DNA from: a virus
Lineage: Duplodnaviria > Caudoviricetes
DNA: 64,000 nucleotides
Reading direction: 5' to 3' (one strand)
IMG/VR virus record: IMGVR_UViG_3300020050_014713
Location: 1 to 64,000 of that record
Below the pieces are notes generated by a model. The model saw nothing but the letters and a program-made list of their open reading frames with translations, did no database searches and had not been told where the DNA came from. This document shows positions 20,427 through 54,102 of this stretch, piece by piece. The translations under genes and the position numbers were made by a program. Positions within the stretch are counted from its first letter, which is position 1, and every line of letters begins with the position of its first letter.

Positions 20427-20503
20427 TGGTACTACGCCTAGGAGTTGAACCTAGCTTTAAGACGCTTATAAGACGCCTTCGGAATACCGTCCCGCCGCGT
20501 AGC
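20427..20503 (-). tRNA. tRNA-Ile (anticodon UAU)
   Basis: Acceptor GCTACGC/GCGTAGT, A73, encoded CCA; anticodon loop CT-TAT-AA; T-arm CTAGG-TTCAACT-CCTAG; atypical G8 and G1-U72. Confidence 0.8.
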
Positions 20504-22878: not shown

Positions 22879-23346
22879 CTAGCTATTCTTTTCTGGAAAC
22901 TGTGCAAGGGCAGCACACGCAAAGCATTCACATTCTGGCTTAATACAAAACTTTTGGAATCCCTTGAGAGCTTGGCGAAACTCTTTAGCCTCCTCAATAG
23001 CGGAATCGCGTTCGTCCATAATCCTTAGCATTGATGAAATTAACTCACTCTCTTTTTTAGAAAAGTCATCGTAGTATTTTTGCAACTCTTCTTTTTGACC
23101 CTGCGCTACATCCCGTTTAAACTTCCACTCATTAACTTTGTTATTGGCTGTCCGAAGCTGAGAGTGGTAAAAATCAGATTCTGATTGAACTACGGCAATT
23201 TCCATATTATATCTTTTTAAAATCTTATCTACAATCCTACAAGCTTTTTCACTTTGGAAAACGCCATTTTTATCCCAGCATACAGATGCCTCACCAATAC
23301 AAATTGCGACAAGTTCTTCAAATGTATATTGTAAATCTGAATTCAT
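22879..23346 (-). CDS. coiled-coil protein with C-terminal CxCxAC motif
   Basis: Shares its C-terminus with 27386-27742. Confidence 0.7.
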   Translation of the reverse strand: MNSDLQYTFEELVAICIGEASVCWDKNGVFQSEKACRIVDKILKRYNMEIAVVQSESDFYHSQLRTANNKVNEWKFKRDVAQGQKEELQKYYDDFSKKESELISSMLRIMDERDSAIEEAKEFRQALKGFQKFCIKPECECFACAALAQFPEKNS

Positions 23347-23347
23347 C

Positions 23348-23545
23348 CTAACACCATCTTCCTAAATAATTTATAATATGATCCTCCCGGTCTTCCCAAG
23401 TAAGTCCGCTTTCAGTAGCTAGATGTAGCACTAACACTCTGTTATTGTAGTACCACGCTACTAAACTAGACCTAGAGCTTAAGTCTCCACCATGTTTTTT
23501 ATACAGCGGATAAATAACGTCTTGTAGGAACTGTTTTAGGCACAT
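23348..23545 (-). CDS. hypothetical protein
   Basis: Packed. Confidence 0.6.
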   Translation of the reverse strand: MCLKQFLQDVIYPLYKKHGGDLSSRSSLVAWYYNNRVLVLHLATESGLTWEDREDHIINYLGRWC

Positions 23546-32856: not shown

Positions 32857-33091
32857 TATAGATAATGTAGCTTTCTACGTTATAGTCTCGAATACCGTTA
32901 TTGCAAGTTACGTCAAAAGTATCGTCAGTAGTTTTGTATTTAGTTTGCTTCAATACTCGTACCCCACCATTGCAAAAACAAAAGGCTTCAGCCCTAAGCA
33001 TAGCTTCTGCACGTTCAGCAGCGTGGTTTTTAAATAGCGCTCCGCAAGAAACTAGTAAGAAACTAAGGCAAATAATCTTGATCATTTTCAT
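32837..33091 (-). CDS. small Cys-rich lipoprotein
   Basis: Lipobox LVSC after MKMIKIICLSFL. Confidence 0.7.
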   Translation of the reverse strand: MKMIKIICLSFLLVSCGALFKNHAAERAEAMLRAEAFCFCNGGVRVLKQTKYKTTDDTFDVTCNNGIRDYNVESYIIYNETCEE

Positions 33092-33350
33092 CCCCAGATT
33101 TATATTGGTACTGCAGTTGTTCTAGGCTAATTCGTTTATCATCTTTATCTAACAAAATAAATTTACCATCTCGCATATCAATTCTAAGTGAAATGTACTT
33201 ACATCTACTGTTATAAATCCAACCCCAAGATTTATTTAAGCTAAACATTCCACCTTCAGTAGCTTTTTTAATAAAGGAAATAACTTCCTCTAGGTTAGTA
33301 TCCCAGATATTTTCTTTTTGTTTTAGTTCTAAAATTTTGTCTCGTTTCAT
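33063..33350 (-). CDS. hypothetical protein
   Basis: Coupled. Confidence 0.65.
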   Translation of the reverse strand: MKRDKILELKQKENIWDTNLEEVISFIKKATEGGMFSLNKSWGWIYNSRCKYISLRIDMRDGKFILLDKDDKRISLEQLQYQYKSGDENDQDYLP

Positions 33351-33703
33351 TTAATTTCCTGTTTGCAGTCTGGACAATATTTAAAAACTACAGCGTTAGT
33401 ACCCATGCCTACGTAACTATTTCGAGCATTGGTGTGCCAGCATTTGGGATTGGAGGTAGCTTTCATGCCTTGAAGAATTTGATTTTCCAAAGGTTCCATT
33501 TTAGCTAGATATTCTCTAATGTAAGTATCAGTTGCAACTAACACAAACCTACTACAGTCAAACATAGAACCACCTGTATTTTTTAGTATAACTTGCTCAC
33601 CTTTTGCAAATGTACTTTCTACAATATATGATTTTCCAACCTGTAGTATTTTTTCTACGTCAGTATTGTCAATGCATTTAACAATATCGCCTTTAGTAAA
33701 CAT
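33347..33703 (-). CDS. SH3-like protein with C-terminal zinc ribbon
   Basis: KGDIVKCID; CWH...YCPDCK; AGGAG RBS. Confidence 0.65.
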   Translation of the reverse strand: MFTKGDIVKCIDNTDVEKILQVGKSYIVESTFAKGEQVILKNTGGSMFDCSRFVLVATDTYIREYLAKMEPLENQILQGMKATSNPKCWHTNARNSYVGMGTNAVVFKYCPDCKQEIK

Positions 33704-33716
33704 AGTACTCCTAAGA

Positions 33717-33917
33717 TGGGATAGGTAGGACGCTACTCCTACTTACTGTGAAACTCTGCGCCCTTATTTTGCGTCGCGCGGTCCGACTGGTTGGACGACC
33801 GTTCACAGCTACGGTATCCAATATATTTTCCACAGATTCATTTCTTTTGCGTGTCTCCAGTGCTGACTCGAACGGTGTTGCCACCTCGCCAGACACAGCT
33901 TTCCACGCCGCTATCCC
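33717..33917 (-). ncRNA. 201-nt tRNA-like structured RNA
   Basis: GGGATAG/CTATCCC-A terminal stem, D-like stem GCGTG/CACGC, 8-bp anticodon-like stem, T-like arm GTAGG-AGTAGCGT-CCTAC; starts at the predicted +1 of a consensus promoter. Confidence 0.8.
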
Positions 33918-33923
33918 AAAACT

Positions 33924-33952
33924 AGAATACGTTTTTACTCAAAAAATGTCAA
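33924..33952 (-). promoter_or_regulatory. strong sigma70 promoter of the tRNA-like RNA
   Basis: TTGACA-N17-TATTCT, 6 nt upstream of G33917. Confidence 0.8.
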
Positions 33953-47414: not shown

Positions 47415-47791
47415 TAGATTTTACACAGTATAAAACTCGTAAAGAACTTGAAAGCTTTTGCGAAGCTTTGTTTTTACAAGTTTCAGTGCTGAAAAAAGAT
47501 AACTCAAGCCTATCCGACCAGGTACAGCACGCAGAACACCTACTTAAAACAAGTAATGTTCCATCGGTTGGCGCTGAACCATGTACCACAGAAAAACTAA
47601 TCCTACGAGAATTAGATAGGCTAGACCAAAGTAGCAAGTTGGCTTCCCTCGAAACTGAGGAAATTAAGAACTTAAAGATGCTTGTAGAAGCTCTAATTAC
47701 TCTACGTAAGAAAGAACCTCTAAAAGAATCAAAGCCAATAAAGAAAAAAATTGATGCTCAAGAGCTTTTATCCATTGTAAGAGATAAATGA
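47411..47791 (+). CDS. candidate terminase small subunit
   Basis: Position and overlap directly before terL; helical. Confidence 0.45.
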   Translation: MIDFTQYKTRKELESFCEALFLQVSVLKKDNSSLSDQVQHAEHLLKTSNVPSVGAEPCTTEKLILRELDRLDQSSKLASLETEEIKNLKMLVEALITLRKKEPLKESKPIKKKIDAQELLSIVRDK

Positions 47792-49242
47792 CTCGAATAA
47801 CTAAACAAGAAGCTATTCAGGAACTTTGGGAAAACGGAATCGTTTGCGATTGGCTATTAGATGACAACCAAAAAGACGTTGTCACCATGATTGAAACCAA
47901 TAGAGCTTCTCAAATCTGCGTTTCCTTAAGTCGTCAGTCCGGTAAATCATTTGGTACACTTGCGTATCTAGTAGAAAAGTGTATGCAAACTCCAAATATC
48001 ATTGCAACATTCGTAGCCCCGTACCAGTCACAAGCTAAAAAAATTGCTAAGACTACTATGCGGGAAATATTATCTACTTGCCCAGAGCATCTTCGTCCAG
48101 AATATAAAACTCAGGAAAACCATTTTCTATTTTCGAATGGGAGCGTTATTGAGTTGTGCGGAAACAATGCTGGACACATTGAAAAAGCCAGGGGACCTAA
48201 AGCTCATATTATTGTTTGCGATGAGGTAGGCTTCTGGGTAGATCTAAAGTACAGCATTAAATCTGTTCTCTTACCTAAGTTAAACACTACTAAAGGTAAG
48301 CTGATAATGATTTCTACCCCTCCTGCATCTGCTGGACACCCGTTCCAAGAGTTTTTCGAAACTGCTAAGTTTAGAGAAGCTGCAATTGTTAGAACAATTT
48401 TTGATTGCCCCAGATATACAAAAGAAGATATTGATAAGTTTGCCGAGGAGTGTGGAGGATACGACAGTATTGACTTTAGAAGAGAGTACGGATGCGAGTT
48501 CGTAACGGATACCTCTCGTGCAGTTATTCCAGAAGCTACTAGCGAACTTTTAGAAGAAATAACAAAAGACTGGGAACGCCCTCCATACTACAATACCTAT
48601 GTTTCAATGGACATTGGTTTTAAAGACTTAACTGTTATTCTTTTTGCCTACCACGATTTCCGTTCTGGAAAAGTAATTATTGAAGACGAAATAGTATTGG
48701 ATACTCCTGAGAAACTTCGTACAGATAGCTTTGCCTACGCTATTTACGACAAAGAACAAGCTCTTTGGGGCGGTATAGACGGCGAACACCATGAACCATA
48801 CAAAAGGGTATCGGATATTAACCACATCCTATTAAACGATCTATACCTTGCTCACAACCTTAGTATTATTCCCACAGCTAAAGATGACCTCGATGGACAA
48901 ATCAACAATACTCGCCTAATGGTTGGCGGCGGAAAAGTCATAATTAATCCAAGATGTAAAACTCTTATCTTCCACCTTAAGAACGCCATTTGGAAAAACG
49001 AAAAACGCAAAGAGTTTTCTCGTAGTGCTGATGCTGGTCACTATGATGCTCTAAGCGCACTCATCTACCTACTAAGAAACGTTGACTACCATAAAAACCC
49101 ATATCCTGAAAAGTTTGATCTTCGACTAGAAAAAGAATCGTTTATATCTCCACATTGGAAACCTAAAACCGACGACATTAAAAAAACTTTAAGAGAAATC
49201 TTTACAATTAATAAAGACAAGAAAAAAGTGAGAATGAGATGA
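47788..49242 (+). CDS. terL: terminase large subunit
   Basis: SRQSGKS, IIVCDE, ISTP, FRREY.CEF, nuclease SMDIG and HYDA. Confidence 0.95.
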   Translation: MTRITKQEAIQELWENGIVCDWLLDDNQKDVVTMIETNRASQICVSLSRQSGKSFGTLAYLVEKCMQTPNIIATFVAPYQSQAKKIAKTTMREILSTCPEHLRPEYKTQENHFLFSNGSVIELCGNNAGHIEKARGPKAHIIVCDEVGFWVDLKYSIKSVLLPKLNTTKGKLIMISTPPASAGHPFQEFFETAKFREAAIVRTIFDCPRYTKEDIDKFAEECGGYDSIDFRREYGCEFVTDTSRAVIPEATSELLEEITKDWERPPYYNTYVSMDIGFKDLTVILFAYHDFRSGKVIIEDEIVLDTPEKLRTDSFAYAIYDKEQALWGGIDGEHHEPYKRVSDINHILLNDLYLAHNLSIIPTAKDDLDGQINNTRLMVGGGKVIINPRCKTLIFHLKNAIWKNEKRKEFSRSADAGHYDALSALIYLLRNVDYHKNPYPEKFDLRLEKESFISPHWKPKTDDIKKTLREIFTINKDKKKVRMR

Positions 49243-51242
49243 GTAACAATACCTACTTTGCAGCACAAGAAAAAGAAAAGCTTGCCTCTACGCTAATTGC
49301 TAAAAAGAATAAGTTTTACGAAAGTCTTATGGCAAGTGGCTATGTAGAGAAAATTAACCGTTTGTACGCCATGTACCACGGCATGGATTTTTACGAAAGC
49401 GTTTCCGGTCACGACATTAAGTTTGAAGGGGAGCAAGGAGAGCTTGTTTCAATGAACGTAAACCATTTACGTAACATTGCTTCAAACATGCATACGCTCA
49501 TCACTTCTACCCGTCCAGTAATGGAAACTAGGGCTATTAACACCGATTATAAGTCCAGGGTACAGACCAAGCTTGCTAATGGTCTATTGGACTATTATAT
49601 GCGTGAAAAACGCCTAGAGTGGATTTTACGCCGTGCTTGCGAATACGCCATTGTTCTTAGTAGTGGGTGGGTACGAATGGAGTGGGACGCCACTGCTGGG
49701 GAAGAGATTGATACTGATGAGGAAACTGGAATCAAGGTTTATGAAGGGGATGTAAGAATTGAGGTTCTATCTCCATTTGATATTTTTTTTGACGCCTGTA
49801 GAGAAGATCAAGACCATGATTGGTACGTTGTCACCAGTTATAAAAATAAATACGACTTAGCCAGTAAGTATACAGAGTACGCAGATAAAATCAGAGACTT
49901 ACCCACTAAAGACAAGCTTGAGTATAAAGGCGGGGTAAATTTTGGTGTAGATGAAACCACTCTAATTCCTGTATTTGAATTTTTTCACAGAAAAACTGAT
50001 AGCCTTCCAGAAGGTCGCTACCTAATGTTCCTATCTACCGATATTGCACCAATAGACATGCCTTTGCAATATCCTATGATTCCTCTATTTAGGATTTCTG
50101 CTGGGGATATCTTAGGAACTCCATTTGGCTACACTCCTTTGTTTGACCTAATGGCGCTTCAAGAAGCTGCCTCAATGCTATACAGCGTTATTCTAACTAA
50201 CCAACAGGCTTTTGGTGTTCAGAATATTTGGGTTCCATCCGGAGCAGGAATTTCTATTGAAAGCTTAGCTGGTGGACTAAACATTATTGAAAGTAATGCA
50301 TCTGCTGGAAAACCTGAAGCTCTTAACTTTACTAATACCCCAAAAGAGATTTTTGAATATCTACAGTTTCTAATTCAATCAATGGAAACTATCTCTGGTA
50401 TTAACAGCGTTGTGCGCGGTAATCCTGAAGCTAGCTTACGCTCTGCTTCCGCTTTGGCGCTTGTGCAATCCAATAGTATCCAGTTTATGAGTGGTCTAGC
50501 TGCTCAATATAACCAGCTTATTGAAGATGTTGGAACTGGTCTATTTAGAATTCTAAAGCTTTACGCAAAGACCAAACGTGTAGCATCCATTGTTGGAGTA
50601 AATAATAGGTCCTACCTAAAAGAATTTAACAATGACGATTTGAGTAACATTAATAGGGTTATTGTTTCTGCGGGTAACCCTTTGCAAAAAACTTCAGCCG
50701 GTCGTCAACAAATGGCAAGTGAGCTAGTTCAATATACTGAACTCACTCCACGTCAGTATTTGACCGTATTGGAAACAGGAACATTAGATAGCGTAACTGA
50801 GGGAGCAATGAAAGATGAAAATCTAATTGTTTCTGAAAACGAAATGCTACTAGATGGTAAAACTCCAGTAGTTGATGTTCTTGATAAACATAGCATTCAC
50901 ATTATGCGCCACAGAGAGGTAATTTCTGATGCCAGTTTACGTGAAAATCCAGAGTTAGTAAAAGCTGTTCACGAGCATATTCAAATGCATATTGACCAGT
51001 TGCGTACAGCAGATCCTACTTTCTTGGCTATGATGGGGGAACAATCACTGGCTCCTCAACCCATGCCTAATACAGGTCAGAATTTGCCTCCAATGGGTCA
51101 GGGGGATGCTTCTGCTGGTGCCCCTATGCCTAGCGCCCCAATGCCTCCAGAACAGGCTAATACAGGGCTTCCTAGCCCTCCACAGGGATTTGAGAATCAG
51201 CCCATTAATGCTGAACAGTTACAACAAAAAATTACAGGTTAA
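49239..51242 (+). CDS. portal protein
   Basis: 667 aa after terL; ISGINSVVRG, Pro/Gln-rich tail. Confidence 0.85.
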   Translation: MSNNTYFAAQEKEKLASTLIAKKNKFYESLMASGYVEKINRLYAMYHGMDFYESVSGHDIKFEGEQGELVSMNVNHLRNIASNMHTLITSTRPVMETRAINTDYKSRVQTKLANGLLDYYMREKRLEWILRRACEYAIVLSSGWVRMEWDATAGEEIDTDEETGIKVYEGDVRIEVLSPFDIFFDACREDQDHDWYVVTSYKNKYDLASKYTEYADKIRDLPTKDKLEYKGGVNFGVDETTLIPVFEFFHRKTDSLPEGRYLMFLSTDIAPIDMPLQYPMIPLFRISAGDILGTPFGYTPLFDLMALQEAASMLYSVILTNQQAFGVQNIWVPSGAGISIESLAGGLNIIESNASAGKPEALNFTNTPKEIFEYLQFLIQSMETISGINSVVRGNPEASLRSASALALVQSNSIQFMSGLAAQYNQLIEDVGTGLFRILKLYAKTKRVASIVGVNNRSYLKEFNNDDLSNINRVIVSAGNPLQKTSAGRQQMASELVQYTELTPRQYLTVLETGTLDSVTEGAMKDENLIVSENEMLLDGKTPVVDVLDKHSIHIMRHREVISDASLRENPELVKAVHEHIQMHIDQLRTADPTFLAMMGEQSLAPQPMPNTGQNLPPMGQGDASAGAPMPSAPMPPEQANTGLPSPPQGFENQPINAEQLQQKITG

Positions 51243-51280
51243 CCTATACCCATAATGGATTAGGTATTTAAGGAGAAGAT

Positions 51281-52258
51281 ATGTCCGACGTAAAAACAGA
51301 TGCACCCGTAGAGAATCAAGTAGAAGAAGTTAGCGAGGAGAATCTAACAGAAGAGGAACTTGCTGCCTTGGAAGCTGAAGAAGGCGAAGAAAAAGCTAAA
51401 GAAGAACCAAAAGACAAGGAAGCCGCAAAACCTACCTCTGTCAAAAAATTTAAACTTAAAGTTGATGGCAAAGAAGAGGAGGAAGAAATTGATCTTGCAA
51501 ACGAAGCTGAGCTAGTAAAACGTTTACAGCTAGCCAAAGTAGCTCAAAAACGAATGCAAGAAAGTGCTGCAGATAAAAAAACTGTAGCCAAAATGAACGA
51601 AGAACTAAAAGAATTTGTAATTGCATTGAAAGAAGATCCATTTAGTGTTCTTTCTGATCCACGATTTGGATTGGATCTTAAAAAGCTAGCTTATGACTAT
51701 GTTGCAAAAGAAGTTGAACAAGCTACAAAAACTCCAGAACAGCGTGAAGCTGAGGCAAAAGAAGCTAAAGCAAAAGAACTTGAAGAAAAACTAGCTAAAC
51801 TAGAAAAAGAAAAAGTTGAAGCTGAGAAAAAATCAATTCAAGAGAAGTATGAGCAAGAACTTCAAAAGGGAATTATTGAATCCATTAAGGAAAGTGGATT
51901 ACCAGAAGACGAACCTGAAGTTCTAAAACGTTATGCTCAAGCTATGAAAATTGGCTTGAAGTTTAAAATGGAACTAAATCCAAAAGAACTTGGTCCCATT
52001 ATCAAACAACAACTCTATCAAGAATCTAAGAAGTTTGCTTCTTTCTTGAAAGATGAAGAGTTTGAAGAGTTTGCTGGAGTAGACCGCATTAAAAACGTCC
52101 GTAAAAAGATGTTAGATAAAATTAAAACTAACGTAACTTCTAGTAAGCAAATAAAAGACACTGGTTCTGAAAAAGATGAAGACAGTCTCAATAGGGACAA
52201 AAAGAAATATGTCCGTAATAGCAAGAGTTTCTGGAAAGATTTAGAAAAAGGAAGCTAG
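51281..52258 (+). CDS. capsid scaffolding protein
   Basis: Acidic coiled coil, KLKVDGKEEE; between portal and capsid. Confidence 0.75.
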   Translation: MSDVKTDAPVENQVEEVSEENLTEEELAALEAEEGEEKAKEEPKDKEAAKPTSVKKFKLKVDGKEEEEEIDLANEAELVKRLQLAKVAQKRMQESAADKKTVAKMNEELKEFVIALKEDPFSVLSDPRFGLDLKKLAYDYVAKEVEQATKTPEQREAEAKEAKAKELEEKLAKLEKEKVEAEKKSIQEKYEQELQKGIIESIKESGLPEDEPEVLKRYAQAMKIGLKFKMELNPKELGPIIKQQLYQESKKFASFLKDEEFEEFAGVDRIKNVRKKMLDKIKTNVTSSKQIKDTGSEKDEDSLNRDKKKYVRNSKSFWKDLEKGS

Positions 52259-52312
52259 TAACCTATTGAAATTACATGATGTAGCATAAAAATGATAGAA
52301 AGTAAAAACGAT

Positions 52313-52324
52313 TTTCTAACTATG
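52313..52324 (+). promoter_or_regulatory. TTTCTAACTATG box (copy 3), upstream of the capsid operon
   Basis: Exact 12-mer in a 174-nt intergenic gap. Confidence 0.6.
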
Positions 52325-52432
52325 TAGTAAGTAGGTAATTAAAACTGTGATGCAAGCACTCGCCCATTACATAATTTTAACGCTGAAAACTAAAAAACTT
52401 TTAACAAAAACTAAATAATTGAGGTTAATAAA

Positions 52433-52870
52433 ATGGATCGCTTAGAAAAAAATGAATATCTCTATGACCGCTGCCTAAAGGCTGTCTCCTTGCCCTTCCG
52501 CGTGAAGGTTGAAGGTAGCGCCACTCCTGCCAGCAAACTACTCTCCAGCGACTTGCCTGGTGTTTGTTTGATTGGTGCCGAAGGTCTTACCGCTGAAATC
52601 ACCGCTGTTGAATCTGGCTTGAGCTACGCGGCTGTTGATGCCAACGGTACCTACGCTGTTTTCTTGAAAGGTTCAGAACTTGGCGACGTTAAAGAAGTCT
52701 ACTCGGTTTCTTTGATGCGCACTCTAGATGGCGGTACCACTACTGCTGCTCTAGTTTCTAACGGTTTGACTGCTGGCGGCAACATCTTAATTCAAATTGA
52801 TGCCACTGACGCCTTAAACAGCACCGATGATTCTGAACTATATCTTGAAGTAAAATACTGTCTTAAATAA
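52433..52870 (+). CDS. abundant virion protein, candidate capsid decoration
   Basis: Same biased codon usage as the major capsid gene; beta-rich. Confidence 0.55.
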   Translation: MDRLEKNEYLYDRCLKAVSLPFRVKVEGSATPASKLLSSDLPGVCLIGAEGLTAEITAVESGLSYAAVDANGTYAVFLKGSELGDVKEVYSVSLMRTLDGGTTTAALVSNGLTAGGNILIQIDATDALNSTDDSELYLEVKYCLK

Positions 52871-52884
52871 TTAGGAGTTTATAA

Positions 52885-54102
52885 ATGTCTACTACTGTTA
52901 ATATTACAACCCTCAATGGTAACTTTAAAAAAGTTTATGCCGATAAAATGGATAAACTCATCCCCATGGATATCAAGATTTCTCCCGAAATCGACTTTAT
53001 CCCCTCAGAAAAAATGGGCGGTCTAAATTACAACGTGCCCGTAGCTGTTGCTAACGAGCATGGCGTAACTTACGGTGGGGAAGAAGGCGAAGCTTTCAAC
53101 CTACTACCTCCTGTTTCTGGTAACATCAAGGAAGCAAGCGTAAAAGGTTCTGAAATCGTAATGCGCTCTTTCATCTCCTACGGTGCTGCTAGCCGTGCTG
53201 AAAAGTCACAGGCTGCCTTCGTTCGTACTACCAAGTACATCGTTGAAAACCTCACCGAATCCATCAACCGTAAACTAGAAGCCGAGTGCCTCTACGGTCA
53301 AATGGGTCTTTCTGCTGTTTCTGCCGTTTCTGGTAACATCCTTACTCTAGCTGCCGCTGAATTCGCTCCTGGTATTTGGTTCGGTGCTAAAGGTATGCGT
53401 CTAGAAATCTACGACAGCACTGGTGCTACTCTTCGTGGAGAAGCTCAAGTTGATAAAGTTGACCTAGACAACAAGCAACTAACCCTAAACGCTATGCCTG
53501 CTGGCGTAACTGCTACCGATGTTATCTTCGAAAAATCTGCCAAAGGCAAAGAATTCGTTGGTATCCACAAGATTCTATCCAACACTGGTACTCTCTTCGG
53601 CATTAGCGCCTCTACCTATGAAGTTTGGAAATCTACCGTATTCCCTGTCGGCGGTAACTTGTCTTTCGGTAAAATCACTGAAGGTCTAGGTAAAGCTGCT
53701 GGTCGCGGTCTAAACGTAGACATTAAACTCTACGTCTCTAACGCTACCTGGGCTAAAATGGTTCAAGACCAAGCTGCTTACCGTCAGTATGATACCAGCT
53801 ACAAAGCTGATAAAGCTGAAAACGGTTTCCGCTCTATCATGTTCCACTCTCAGAACGGTTCTGTTGAAATCATCCCCCACACCTACGTAAAAGAAGGCTA
53901 CGCTTTCGGTCTAGTTCTTGAAGACTGGGAAAAAGTCGGTTCTACCGATGTTACCTTCAAAATCCCTGGTTCTGGTGGAGAAGAGTTCTTCCGCCCTCTT
54001 TCTGATGCCGCTGGTTTCGAACTACGTTGTTACGCTGATTGGGCTATCTTCTGCCATAAGCCTAACCGTCAGATTCTTTACTCCGGTATTACTAACTCCT
54101 AA
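52885..54102 (+). CDS. major capsid protein (HK97 fold)
   Basis: 405 aa, LK.VY...M N-terminus, strong codon bias, followed by a terminator. Confidence 0.88.
   Translation: MSTTVNITTLNGNFKKVYADKMDKLIPMDIKISPEIDFIPSEKMGGLNYNVPVAVANEHGVTYGGEEGEAFNLLPPVSGNIKEASVKGSEIVMRSFISYGAASRAEKSQAAFVRTTKYIVENLTESINRKLEAECLYGQMGLSAVSAVSGNILTLAAAEFAPGIWFGAKGMRLEIYDSTGATLRGEAQVDKVDLDNKQLTLNAMPAGVTATDVIFEKSAKGKEFVGIHKILSNTGTLFGISASTYEVWKSTVFPVGGNLSFGKITEGLGKAAGRGLNVDIKLYVSNATWAKMVQDQAAYRQYDTSYKADKAENGFRSIMFHSQNGSVEIIPHTYVKEGYAFGLVLEDWEKVGSTDVTFKIPGSGGEEFFRPLSDAAGFELRCYADWAIFCHKPNRQILYSGITNS

Follow-up and report, generated by a model that had tools for sequence, protein, structure and literature searches.

A large family of structured RNAs encoded by unrelated phages and absent from Rfam 15

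Transfer RNAs are recognized by U54...A58 in the T-loop, a GG in the D-loop and an anticodon loop of 7 nucleotides (nt); transfer-messenger RNA (tmRNA) by a G3-U70 pair, an encoded CCA, pseudoknots and a tag open reading frame (ORF) with a resume codon; and Y RNAs of the YrlA type by a sequence-conserved, Ro-binding terminal stem, a canonical T-arm and a neighboring rsr gene. Two further systems are built differently: the put RNAs of phage HK022 (putL and putR) are RNA-only processive antiterminators of ~70 nt, made of two hairpins without a terminal closing helix, and in the four-way-junction hairpin ribozyme conserved loops on arms next to the junction dock. The phage-associated GOLLD and ROOL RNAs are large and ornate (500–800 nt) and are represented in Rfam (PMC12286853), while a survey of viral genomes lists 10,006 candidate structured RNAs (csRNAs), with 8,495 candidates from IMG/VR, some of which its text terms tRNA-like (PMC10690425). 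Here we describe an element on the minus strand of a 64,000-nt stretch of viral DNA (Duplodnaviria; Caudoviricetes; positions 1 to 64,000 of IMG/VR record IMGVR_UViG_3300020050_014713, hereafter the window). The phage concerned is an 83.7-kb record with direct terminal repeats, and its terminase shares <30% identity with those of cultured phages. The element is almost certainly the gene of a real non-coding RNA family and not a protein gene; it is also probable, if less firmly so, that it encodes a ~201-nt member of a large family of structured phage RNAs absent from Rfam 15, and that this member is a self-contained module.

Relatives, covariation and fold of the element

From 5′ to 3′, the core of the family consists of a terminal helix (P1) of 7–8 base pairs (bp); the dinucleotide CG as a linker; P2, a helix of 5 bp whose cap is GAAAGC...AGA; a middle that varies; a single conserved A; and P4, a second 5-bp helix, which has the loop AGUMGCG and abuts P1. 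Its ground plan is a cloverleaf of ~100 nt. The proteins encoded on either side of the window copy (118 and 64 amino acids, aa) have zero relatives in IMG/VR or in a set of 5.8 billion proteins. The element itself recurs unchanged (100% identical) on three other contigs, where gene callers left the gap empty; being identical, these are uninformative for covariation. A search with the capsid protein of the window returned one 10.6-kb fragment that does not include the element region, and BLAST of the element and of other members against GenBank phages was empty, the conserved blocks being too short. In a 165-kb phage (L006) P1 is different, and the 17 nt after it (CGGCGUGGAAAGCUGUG) and a further 16 nt downstream (CACUGGAGACACGCAA) are shared with the window copy; the last hairpin of its RNA has the loop GUCGCG and a stem that departs from that of the window copy by compensatory changes.

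A search pattern built on these 17- and 16-nt blocks (the long-form pattern) matched 30 IMG/VR contigs, 87 metagenome stretches and 13 GTDB contigs. Seven of the 13 GTDB matches are genuine, every one in a metagenome-assembled genome (MAG); the other six, which fall by chance inside coding sequence (of Pseudomonas, Phyllobacterium, Persicitalea and other genomes), were set aside. A covariance model (R1), built from a MAFFT alignment (A2), recovers every member end to end together with divergent extra copies. The second pattern, the 19-mer GCGUG-GAAAGCAGA-CACGC that defines a short form, matched at least 120 IMG/VR contigs, against ~3 matches expected by chance on our estimate; all 80 fetched loci gave a model match, yielding 80 distinct full-length RNAs of 99–233 nt (median 140). 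The same pattern was absent from the genomes searched among 401 of the class to which a Brevundimonas MAG carrying the RNA belongs. In total ~180 distinct relatives were collected. They come from contigs of viruses and metagenomes and from a small number of MAGs, besides one prophage of Brevundimonas and Pseudomonas phage Persinger, and the family is at least hundreds of members strong and present in unrelated phages.

Base pairing is maintained throughout this collection. In the 29 members of A2, 95.5% of the pairs in the four helices are standard (73.0% in column shuffles), controls with slid partners pair at 29–44%, and 18 of 23 pairs show double changes. The 61 distinct metagenome members that stood outside model building are 93.5% paired versus 69.0%, and 81 distinct short-form sequences 94.2% versus 71.7%. 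Folds constrained to the consensus cost nearly zero energy relative to the free minimum free energy (MFE) structure. P2 covaries, reading AUAUG/CAUAU, ACACG/CGUGU or GUGUG/CACAC in some members, and an eighth P1 pair covaries in the short-form alignment (UA 30, AU 17, GC 13, CG 6).

Several single-stranded positions are, by comparison, close to fixed. Outside the search patterns, near-invariance is seen in the CG linker (in the short form its C is kept by 79/80 members and its G by 78/80, in the long form by 40/41 and 37/41), the G-C pairs that close P1 and P4, the A before P4, and the U-M-G-C-G of the P4 loop, whose U, G, C and G are retained in 41/41 long-form and 77–78 of 80 short-form members. 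Three long-form copies (in L013, L110 and L156) have a P4 loop of 7 nt (CUAGCGA or G-GUAGCG), one base under the usual AGUMGCG-N, so that the first base of this loop is dispensable.

For the window copy, the unconstrained MFE fold (−68.7 kcal/mol) is identical to the drawing in a preliminary description made from this sequence. With z = −2.46, and with 5 of 200 shuffles folding equally well, it is only moderately unusual, and the single sequence would not by itself prove an RNA; it is conservation and covariation in the ~180 relatives that place the element beyond chance. Its parts are as follows.

33717–33918, minus strand: whole structured RNA in its long form, ~201 nt; matched end to end by R1 at 110.6 bits, with the MFE fold
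33911–33917, minus strand: 5′ strand of P1, GGGAUAG, pairing with 33718–33724; all P1 pairs are doubly changed in the family
33718–33724, minus strand: 3′ strand of P1, CUAUCCC, abutting P4 with zero linker; family covariation
33717 and 33918, minus strand: possible eighth P1 pair, U33918 with A33717
33909–33910, minus strand: conserved 2-nt CG linker between P1 and P2
33904–33908, minus strand: 5′ strand of P2, GCGUG, pairing with 33849–33853
33849–33853, minus strand: 3′ strand of P2, CACGC; family covariation
33897–33903, minus strand: GAAAGCU, the conserved 5′ half of the P2 loop; in short-form members these letters make up the hairpin loop GAAAGCAGA
33860–33896, minus strand: helix inserted in the P2 loop, comprising P2b (GUGU/GCAC, which covaries) and a distal hairpin with a GCAA tetraloop
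33874–33885, minus strand: GNRA-capped hairpin within the P2-loop insert
33854–33859, minus strand: UGGAGA, the conserved 3′ half of the P2 loop; its AGA is retained in the short form
33744–33848, minus strand: variable central domain (MFE fold), whose length and hairpin number vary freely in relatives
33828–33835 with 33746–33753, minus strand: 8-bp stem of the central domain of the window copy, CUGUGGAA (33835–33828) / UUUCACAG (33753–33746), enclosing further hairpins
33743, minus strand: conserved unpaired A before P4, an A in 41/41 long-form and 74/80 short-form members
33725–33742, minus strand: P4 hairpin GUAGG / AGUAGCGU / CCUAC, stem 33742–33738 with 33729–33725; loop consensus AGUMGCG-N

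The commoner form of the RNA is ~100–140 nt long, its P2 being a plain hairpin, GCGUG-GAAAGCAGA-CACGC; the smallest members measure 99–105 nt and the family as a whole spans 100–240 nt. The window copy belongs to the long form, in which a helix is inserted between GAAAGC(U) and (UGG)AGA. The distal sequence of this insert varies in the family and the whole of it is missing from the short form, which shows the D-like arm to be, at base, a hairpin of 5 bp, with the helix of the window copy inserted into its loop. Between one and four unrelated hairpins make up the middle domain, depending on the member; since the length and the hairpin number of this domain vary freely, it is not a conserved “anticodon arm.”

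Every sequence feature listed in the preliminary description is present on the minus strand where it was placed, including the promoter-like site TTGACA-N17-TATTCT, and the GC-rich island in AT-rich DNA that it had noted is clear (GC 0.47–0.53 across the element, 0.29–0.39 in the flanks). Family alignment now separates its shared parts from its private ones. Four parts are conserved across the family, with covariation: the acceptor-like stem, the linker of 2 nt, the D-like stem with a hairpin inserted in its loop, and a T-like arm that abuts the terminal stem. Conversely, the “anticodon-like” stem and its inner hairpins fall in the freely varying region and are peculiar to the window copy, as are the GNRA cap and the GCA-AAA-UAA “tag” (the latter in the variable middle). 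The central proposal, an undescribed structured phage RNA, stands: covarying relatives exist and none matches Rfam or is called by ARAGORN, and it is the base pairs that are conserved across them, not the 61-aa protein whose reading frame overlies the element.

That a small protein (from the 61-aa ORF or another of 95 aa) or a DNA element such as an attachment site, an origin or a miniature transposon should explain the stretch is hardly credible. The ORFs do exist (33711–33896 for the 61-aa one, the 95-aa one on the plus strand), the element is multi-copy and the copy of phage Persinger adjoins an integrase gene, but the 61-aa frame stays open in relatives for a median of 29 aa, stops interrupt all six frames in 40 of 90 members, the spacing of the conserved blocks is not a multiple of three (35/33/15 by remainder modulo 3) and no PHROG matches the 61-aa product. 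In the helices, G-U pairs are found on the RNA strand only, and the helices covary while sequences diverge. P1 sequences differ even between copies of one genome; with both P1 and middles unrelated among such copies, they are neither transposon ends nor recent transpositions.

Promoter-like site, neighboring genes and carriers

Upstream of the RNA the window carries a promoter-like site that scores 10/12 in a promoter scanner and ends 5–6 nt before the RNA. Downstream the next gene begins almost at once.

33947–33952, minus strand: −35 hexamer TTGACA; the family upstream logo has TTG in the same phase
33924–33929, minus strand: −10 hexamer TATTCT, 17-nt spacer from the −35; predicted +1 at G33917 or U33918
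33701–33716, minus strand: tail UCUU, Shine–Dalgarno (SD) sequence AGGAG (33712–33708) and ATG (33703) of the next gene, outside the conserved RNA
33347–33703, minus strand: next gene, 118 aa, its SD and ATG within 13 nt of the RNA

When members are aligned on the RNA start, the upstream logo shows TTG at −34..−32 and TAnAnT at −11..−6, and 21 of 100 members have a promoter match of at least 9/12. The +1 at G33917 predicted in the preliminary description is canonical in position and the family logo is phased alike; most likely, to judge from these motifs, the RNA is transcribed from its own sigma-70-type promoter with the +1 at base 1 or 2 of P1. On the 3′ side, a C or U and then a short U-run follow the RNA in AT-rich phages, and merely a G-poor tail in GC-rich ones; terminators are rare (5 of 78 short-form copies).

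The 118-aa gene of the window is an orphan, found only on the phage's own contigs among the 5.8 billion proteins; its product has a weak N-terminal match to phrog_19430 and, at the C-terminus, CW..C and C..C pairs resembling a zinc ribbon. Each strand carries a terminator-like hairpin ~700 nt past the RNA (32982–32995, minus; 33010–33025, plus), within a run of small minus-strand genes.

Elsewhere in the family the genes that follow the RNA are unrelated to one another: they encode a UvsX-like recombinase, a Cas4-like exonuclease, a class IV aminotransferase, a NadM-Nudix protein, a RyR-domain protein, GroEL, a primase-helicase, an RNA ligase and many small orphans. Among long-form copies, 32 of 93 are followed at 13–30 nt by an SD-led ORF, versus 3 of 86 at a shifted control position (a control that overstates the signal, short gaps being the default in compact phage genomes), and among short-form copies 12 of 78 are; the downstream gene is on the same strand in 42 and on the opposite strand in 10 of the 52 callable copies. 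No recurrent neighboring protein was found beside family loci, and none common to 16 complete carrier genomes. The largest cross-genome protein cluster proved to be a single-linkage artifact mixing dUTPase and Clp protease, and the next largest are an endolysin-type peptidase and a subtilase. Only one tRNA gene occurs in 37 loci; the sole tRNA of the window, called by ARAGORN, is a tRNA-Ile (anticodon UAU) at 20427–20503 on the minus strand.

Carrier genomes of 36–165 kb hold one to three copies each, in tandem or tens of kb apart; the 83.7-kb genome of the window phage has no second copy. In some phages two members lie in tandem, 17–85 nt apart (L028:1100–1517, minus; L017:5829–6197, minus; L079:1245–1703, plus; L016:8138–8530, minus; L081:540–954, minus). 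Partners have quite different terminal helices and middle domains, and the P2 loop of one partner is divergent (GAAGUCGCUG or CAAUAAGCUG) in several pairs. The terminase and major capsid protein of the window (47788–54102, plus strand) have distant BLASTP relatives in six other RNA-bearing phage records of 36–86 kb (G007, G012, G013, G018, G024 and G026), all missed by a back-translated pattern search. At least two structural lineages are represented among carriers, the other being made up of phages of 155–165 kb (G001, G005, G009 and G011).

Two carriers are informative as to where the RNA may sit. Pseudomonas phage Persinger (Harrisonburgvirus), the sole cultured carrier found, has a 103-nt short-form member at L360:2856–2958 (plus), corresponding to ~23287–23389 on the minus strand of MT613935.1, where the GenBank record has no feature. 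This RNA begins ~10 nt after the stop codon of the integrase gene gp26 and is followed by its own intrinsic terminator, facing a convergent gene; the related phages Mano and HeidiAbel_Bas97 share the integrase region without the RNA. In the GC-rich Brevundimonas provirus (G016, from the chromosome of MAG L050) the RNA lies between terS-like and terL genes (L223:17994–18698 to L224:737–2302), and the position of this copy inside the packaging module argues that the family is not confined to early regions.

These contexts bear on whether the RNA acts in cis. As the leader of an operon, the nascent RNA, folding right behind the promoter, would act either on the transcribing machinery or on the message of which it is part, with possible modes including processive antitermination or pause suppression through RNA polymerase (like HK022 put), protection of the mRNA 5′ end and an aid to translation of the next gene; we hold such a role to be rather unlikely. 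In its favor, the promoter is phased so that the +1 falls on P1, start codons and co-directional genes follow as counted above, several copies in one genome precede different gene blocks, there is no apparent phage protein partner, and the core is conserved across diverse predicted hosts (hosts being inferred from MAG bins, the one provirus and the one cultured phage), as it would be for a ligand of a universal enzyme. On the other hand, the Persinger RNA stands after int and before a terminator that faces a convergent gene, some ten copies precede opposite-strand genes, and second copies of tandem pairs are not promoter-proximal. Nor do the 3′ strands of the RNA pair with the SD across the family (1.1 nt, against 1.5 in shuffles). 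In the window copy four SD bases can pair with UCCUAC, at −5.5 kcal/mol against −5.7 in shuffles; with no family-wide tendency of this kind, an SD/anti-SD switch was rejected as the family mechanism.

Candidate modes of action

We favor the reading of the stretch as the gene of a self-contained RNA module. Unrelated phages, one to three copies per genome, tandem arrays and unrelated downstream genes argue against a regulator of one particular gene, and the copy behind an integrase gene with a terminator of its own and the copy inside a packaging module point the same way. Persinger-type and convergent contexts favor, more specifically, a stand-alone RNA; from the sequence evidence, we tentatively propose that it would bind a conserved host factor, while thinking this no safer than a conjecture that may well fail.

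In such a scheme the RNA would be transcribed from its own sigma-70-type promoter, beginning at the first bases of P1. P2 and P4 both have five pairs, which would hold their loops at equal height beside the P1–P4 stack; in this geometric model the two loops probably dock, and together with the junction bases (CG and A) they would form a functional surface. As this putative surface is nearly unchanged across diverse predicted hosts, its partner should be universal: the RNA would work by way of a small ligand or of a host component that many bacterial phyla share, or would act on itself. Candidate partners include the ribosome, RNA polymerase, a nuclease and a tRNA-end enzyme, besides a small ligand and the RNA's own backbone.

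A number of observations weigh against this picture. A third of the long-form copies lie 13–30 nt before a start codon, and this proximity, with the 42 to 10 excess of co-directional downstream genes, fits a cis-acting leader too. Loop docking is a geometric argument, and no covariation was found between the P2 and P4 loops or between either loop and the linker; a pseudoknot of the CG linker with the CG of the P4 loop and a GC/GC contact between the loops were both considered and are unsupported, linker variants (A, U) being uncompensated. The invariance of the P2 loop is partly built in, because the search patterns fix parts of it, and copies found by the model only do vary there (GGUAGAU.., GAAGUCGCUG). 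The pairing percentages are themselves somewhat inflated: alignments A3–A6 were fitted to the structure of the model, which favors the metagenome and short-form figures, and the P1 boundaries of A2 were picked by pairing. Finally, the family may already be present, unnamed, among the 8,495 IMG/VR candidates of PMC10690425.

The same near-invariant core on covarying helices, across such diverse predicted hosts, could instead belong to an aptamer whose junction and docked loops bind a metabolite or signaling nucleotide common to all hosts. In aptamers that close by loop–loop contact, conserved loops cap a pair of parallel arms that match in length, an arrangement that the equal arms here recall, and the RNA is often found at the 5′ end of genes and sometimes in tandem. 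We nevertheless consider ligand sensing improbable, as downstream genes have no common function, some copies are upstream of no gene, and there is neither a conserved expression platform nor SD sequestration, with terminators as scarce as noted above.

A new self-cleaving or otherwise catalytic RNA, in which the docked loops would form the active site by analogy with the four-way-junction hairpin ribozyme, strikes us as distinctly improbable. Small phage ribozymes occur in many unrelated phages, without gene association and in both tandem and dispersed copies, a distribution that the family resembles, and here too two conserved loops are equidistant from the junction; yet no Rfam ribozyme family is matched, and the likeness to the hairpin ribozyme is one of architecture.

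To our knowledge, few RNA classes with a near-invariant core across phages of many bacterial phyla are left undescribed; earlier ones were the riboswitches, small ribozymes, 6S RNA and tmRNA. With one to three copies per genome and no detectable need for a phage protein, the RNA probably acts on host basics, or is itself catalytic or ligand-binding. That it forms a new functional class (catalytic, a sensor of a universal signal, or a mimic of tRNA ends) with the docked GAAAGC..AGA and AGUMGCG loops as its pocket is an unlikely outcome; if the tRNA-end version were true, phages of many lineages would soak up host enzymes or toxins aimed at acceptor ends. The presence of an unannotated member in the cultured phage Persinger makes the family directly testable. 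Its members also mark a class of “empty” GC-rich gaps that gene callers skip in AT-rich phage genomes, and two narrow patterns sufficed to collect the ~180 distinct members, the short-form pattern matching at least 120 contigs.

Comparison with known RNA families

None of the 4,227 families of Rfam 15 gave a match at gathering score in the window or in 12 long-form loci, and the 13 short-form loci examined yielded a single match, to a genuine tRNA lying outside the element. Matches at loose E-values were unrelated, those at the Persinger locus all falling on the terminator hairpin. The Rfam tRNA model (RF00005) found nothing at E ≤ 10 over the element region of the window; its detection of a true tRNA in another locus (L283) indicates that the search works. 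ARAGORN called neither a tRNA nor a tmRNA on the element, and the Rfam models for tmRNA and for Y RNAs did not match it. Searching the literature by motif sequence and by topic returned nothing on the motif, the models of PMC10690425 being outside this comparison. The RNA matches no known family; it is the family that we regard as new, and we make no claim to a new mechanism.

It is with tRNA and its relatives that the layout invites comparison, and a tRNA mimic was what the preliminary description had suggested, an idea narrowed here to the acceptor and T-arm half. In this explanation the P1–P4 stack and an elbow made by the loops would be seen by RNase P, RNase Z or the CCA-adding enzyme or, alternatively, by defense toxins that attack tRNA 3′ ends, the RNA being processed or serving as a decoy. 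The layout is cloverleaf-like: a P1 of 7–8 bp, a 2-nt linker, a short arm of 5 bp with a 9-nt loop, a variable middle, and a P4 arm of 5 bp with an 8-nt loop that abuts P1 with no linker. The 99–105-nt size of the smallest members, tandem arrays with A/U-rich spacers like those of tRNA clusters, and the U-rich 3′ tail in AT-rich phages are likewise compatible with it. The departures are substantial. P1 is mostly of 8 bp, P2 of 5 bp, and no single third arm is conserved; the P4 loop (AGUMGCG-N) lacks the U...A signature of a T-loop, the P2 loop reads GAAAGCAGA, CCA is not encoded, and the variable middle offers no conserved anticodon-like loop. The covarying eighth P1 pair makes the stack 13 bp rather than 12 and means that the terminal A is paired and not a discriminator, and copies are not clustered with tRNA genes. 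Of the earlier proposal, the tRNA-like layout is borne out; the hallmark loops, the tag and a conserved anticodon-like arm are not. Since no anticodon-like loop is conserved, the decoy for anticodon nucleases that it had also envisaged is unlikely. Structural mimicry of the acceptor/elbow half is possible from the sequence. As an account of the family we think it unlikely, and, supposing that the RNA does stand alone, equally an outside candidate for its mode of action.

The tmRNA and Y RNA comparisons end similarly. Position 3 of P1 covaries freely where tmRNA has G3-U70, and the GCA-AAA-UAA triplet lies in the non-conserved middle; P1, every pair of which varies, has no conserved sequence comparable to the terminal stem of YrlA-type RNAs, and no conserved protein neighbors the RNA as rsr would. 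A likeness to riboswitches is disfavored by the unrelated downstream genes, SD sequestration that does not exceed chance and the rarity of terminators.

Taken as architecture, the family thus resembles tRNA, the tRNA-like domain of tmRNA, YrlA RNAs and viral 3′ tRNA-like structures in its order of helices, in a terminal stem of 7–8 bp continuous with a 5-bp arm, in a short arm, with a loop of 9 nt, reached through the 2-nt linker, and in a third arm that is dispensable or variable. Insertions are tolerated in the D-like loop and in the middle, much as tmRNA accommodates a large one. The family differs in that it has no T-loop or D-loop consensus, anticodon loop, encoded CCA or tag frame, and its loops carry invariant sequences of their own, GAAAGC..AGA and AGUMGCG.

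The hairpin ribozyme offers a likeness of architecture, in that two junction arms bear conserved loops at a similar distance from the junction (the P2 loop of the long form being an internal loop in this comparison), without any sequence or Rfam similarity. The put RNAs of HK022 are also phage-encoded; they are promoter-proximal and occur in more than one copy per genome before different operons (placements seen here in a subset of copies), need no protein cofactor and act on a universally conserved enzyme, as the present RNA would. They differ in fold and show no sequence or model similarity, and several copies of the present family are not at operon heads. The candidates of PMC10690425 are, going by its text, close in provenance, being covarying intergenic motifs of uncultured phages drawn from IMG/VR; that text names no motif with the present features and assigns no function. 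GOLLD and ROOL are matched by no member and exceed the 100–240 nt of this family, which otherwise keeps company with them: all three are borne by phages or prophages, are independent of proteins and were found by comparative genomics.

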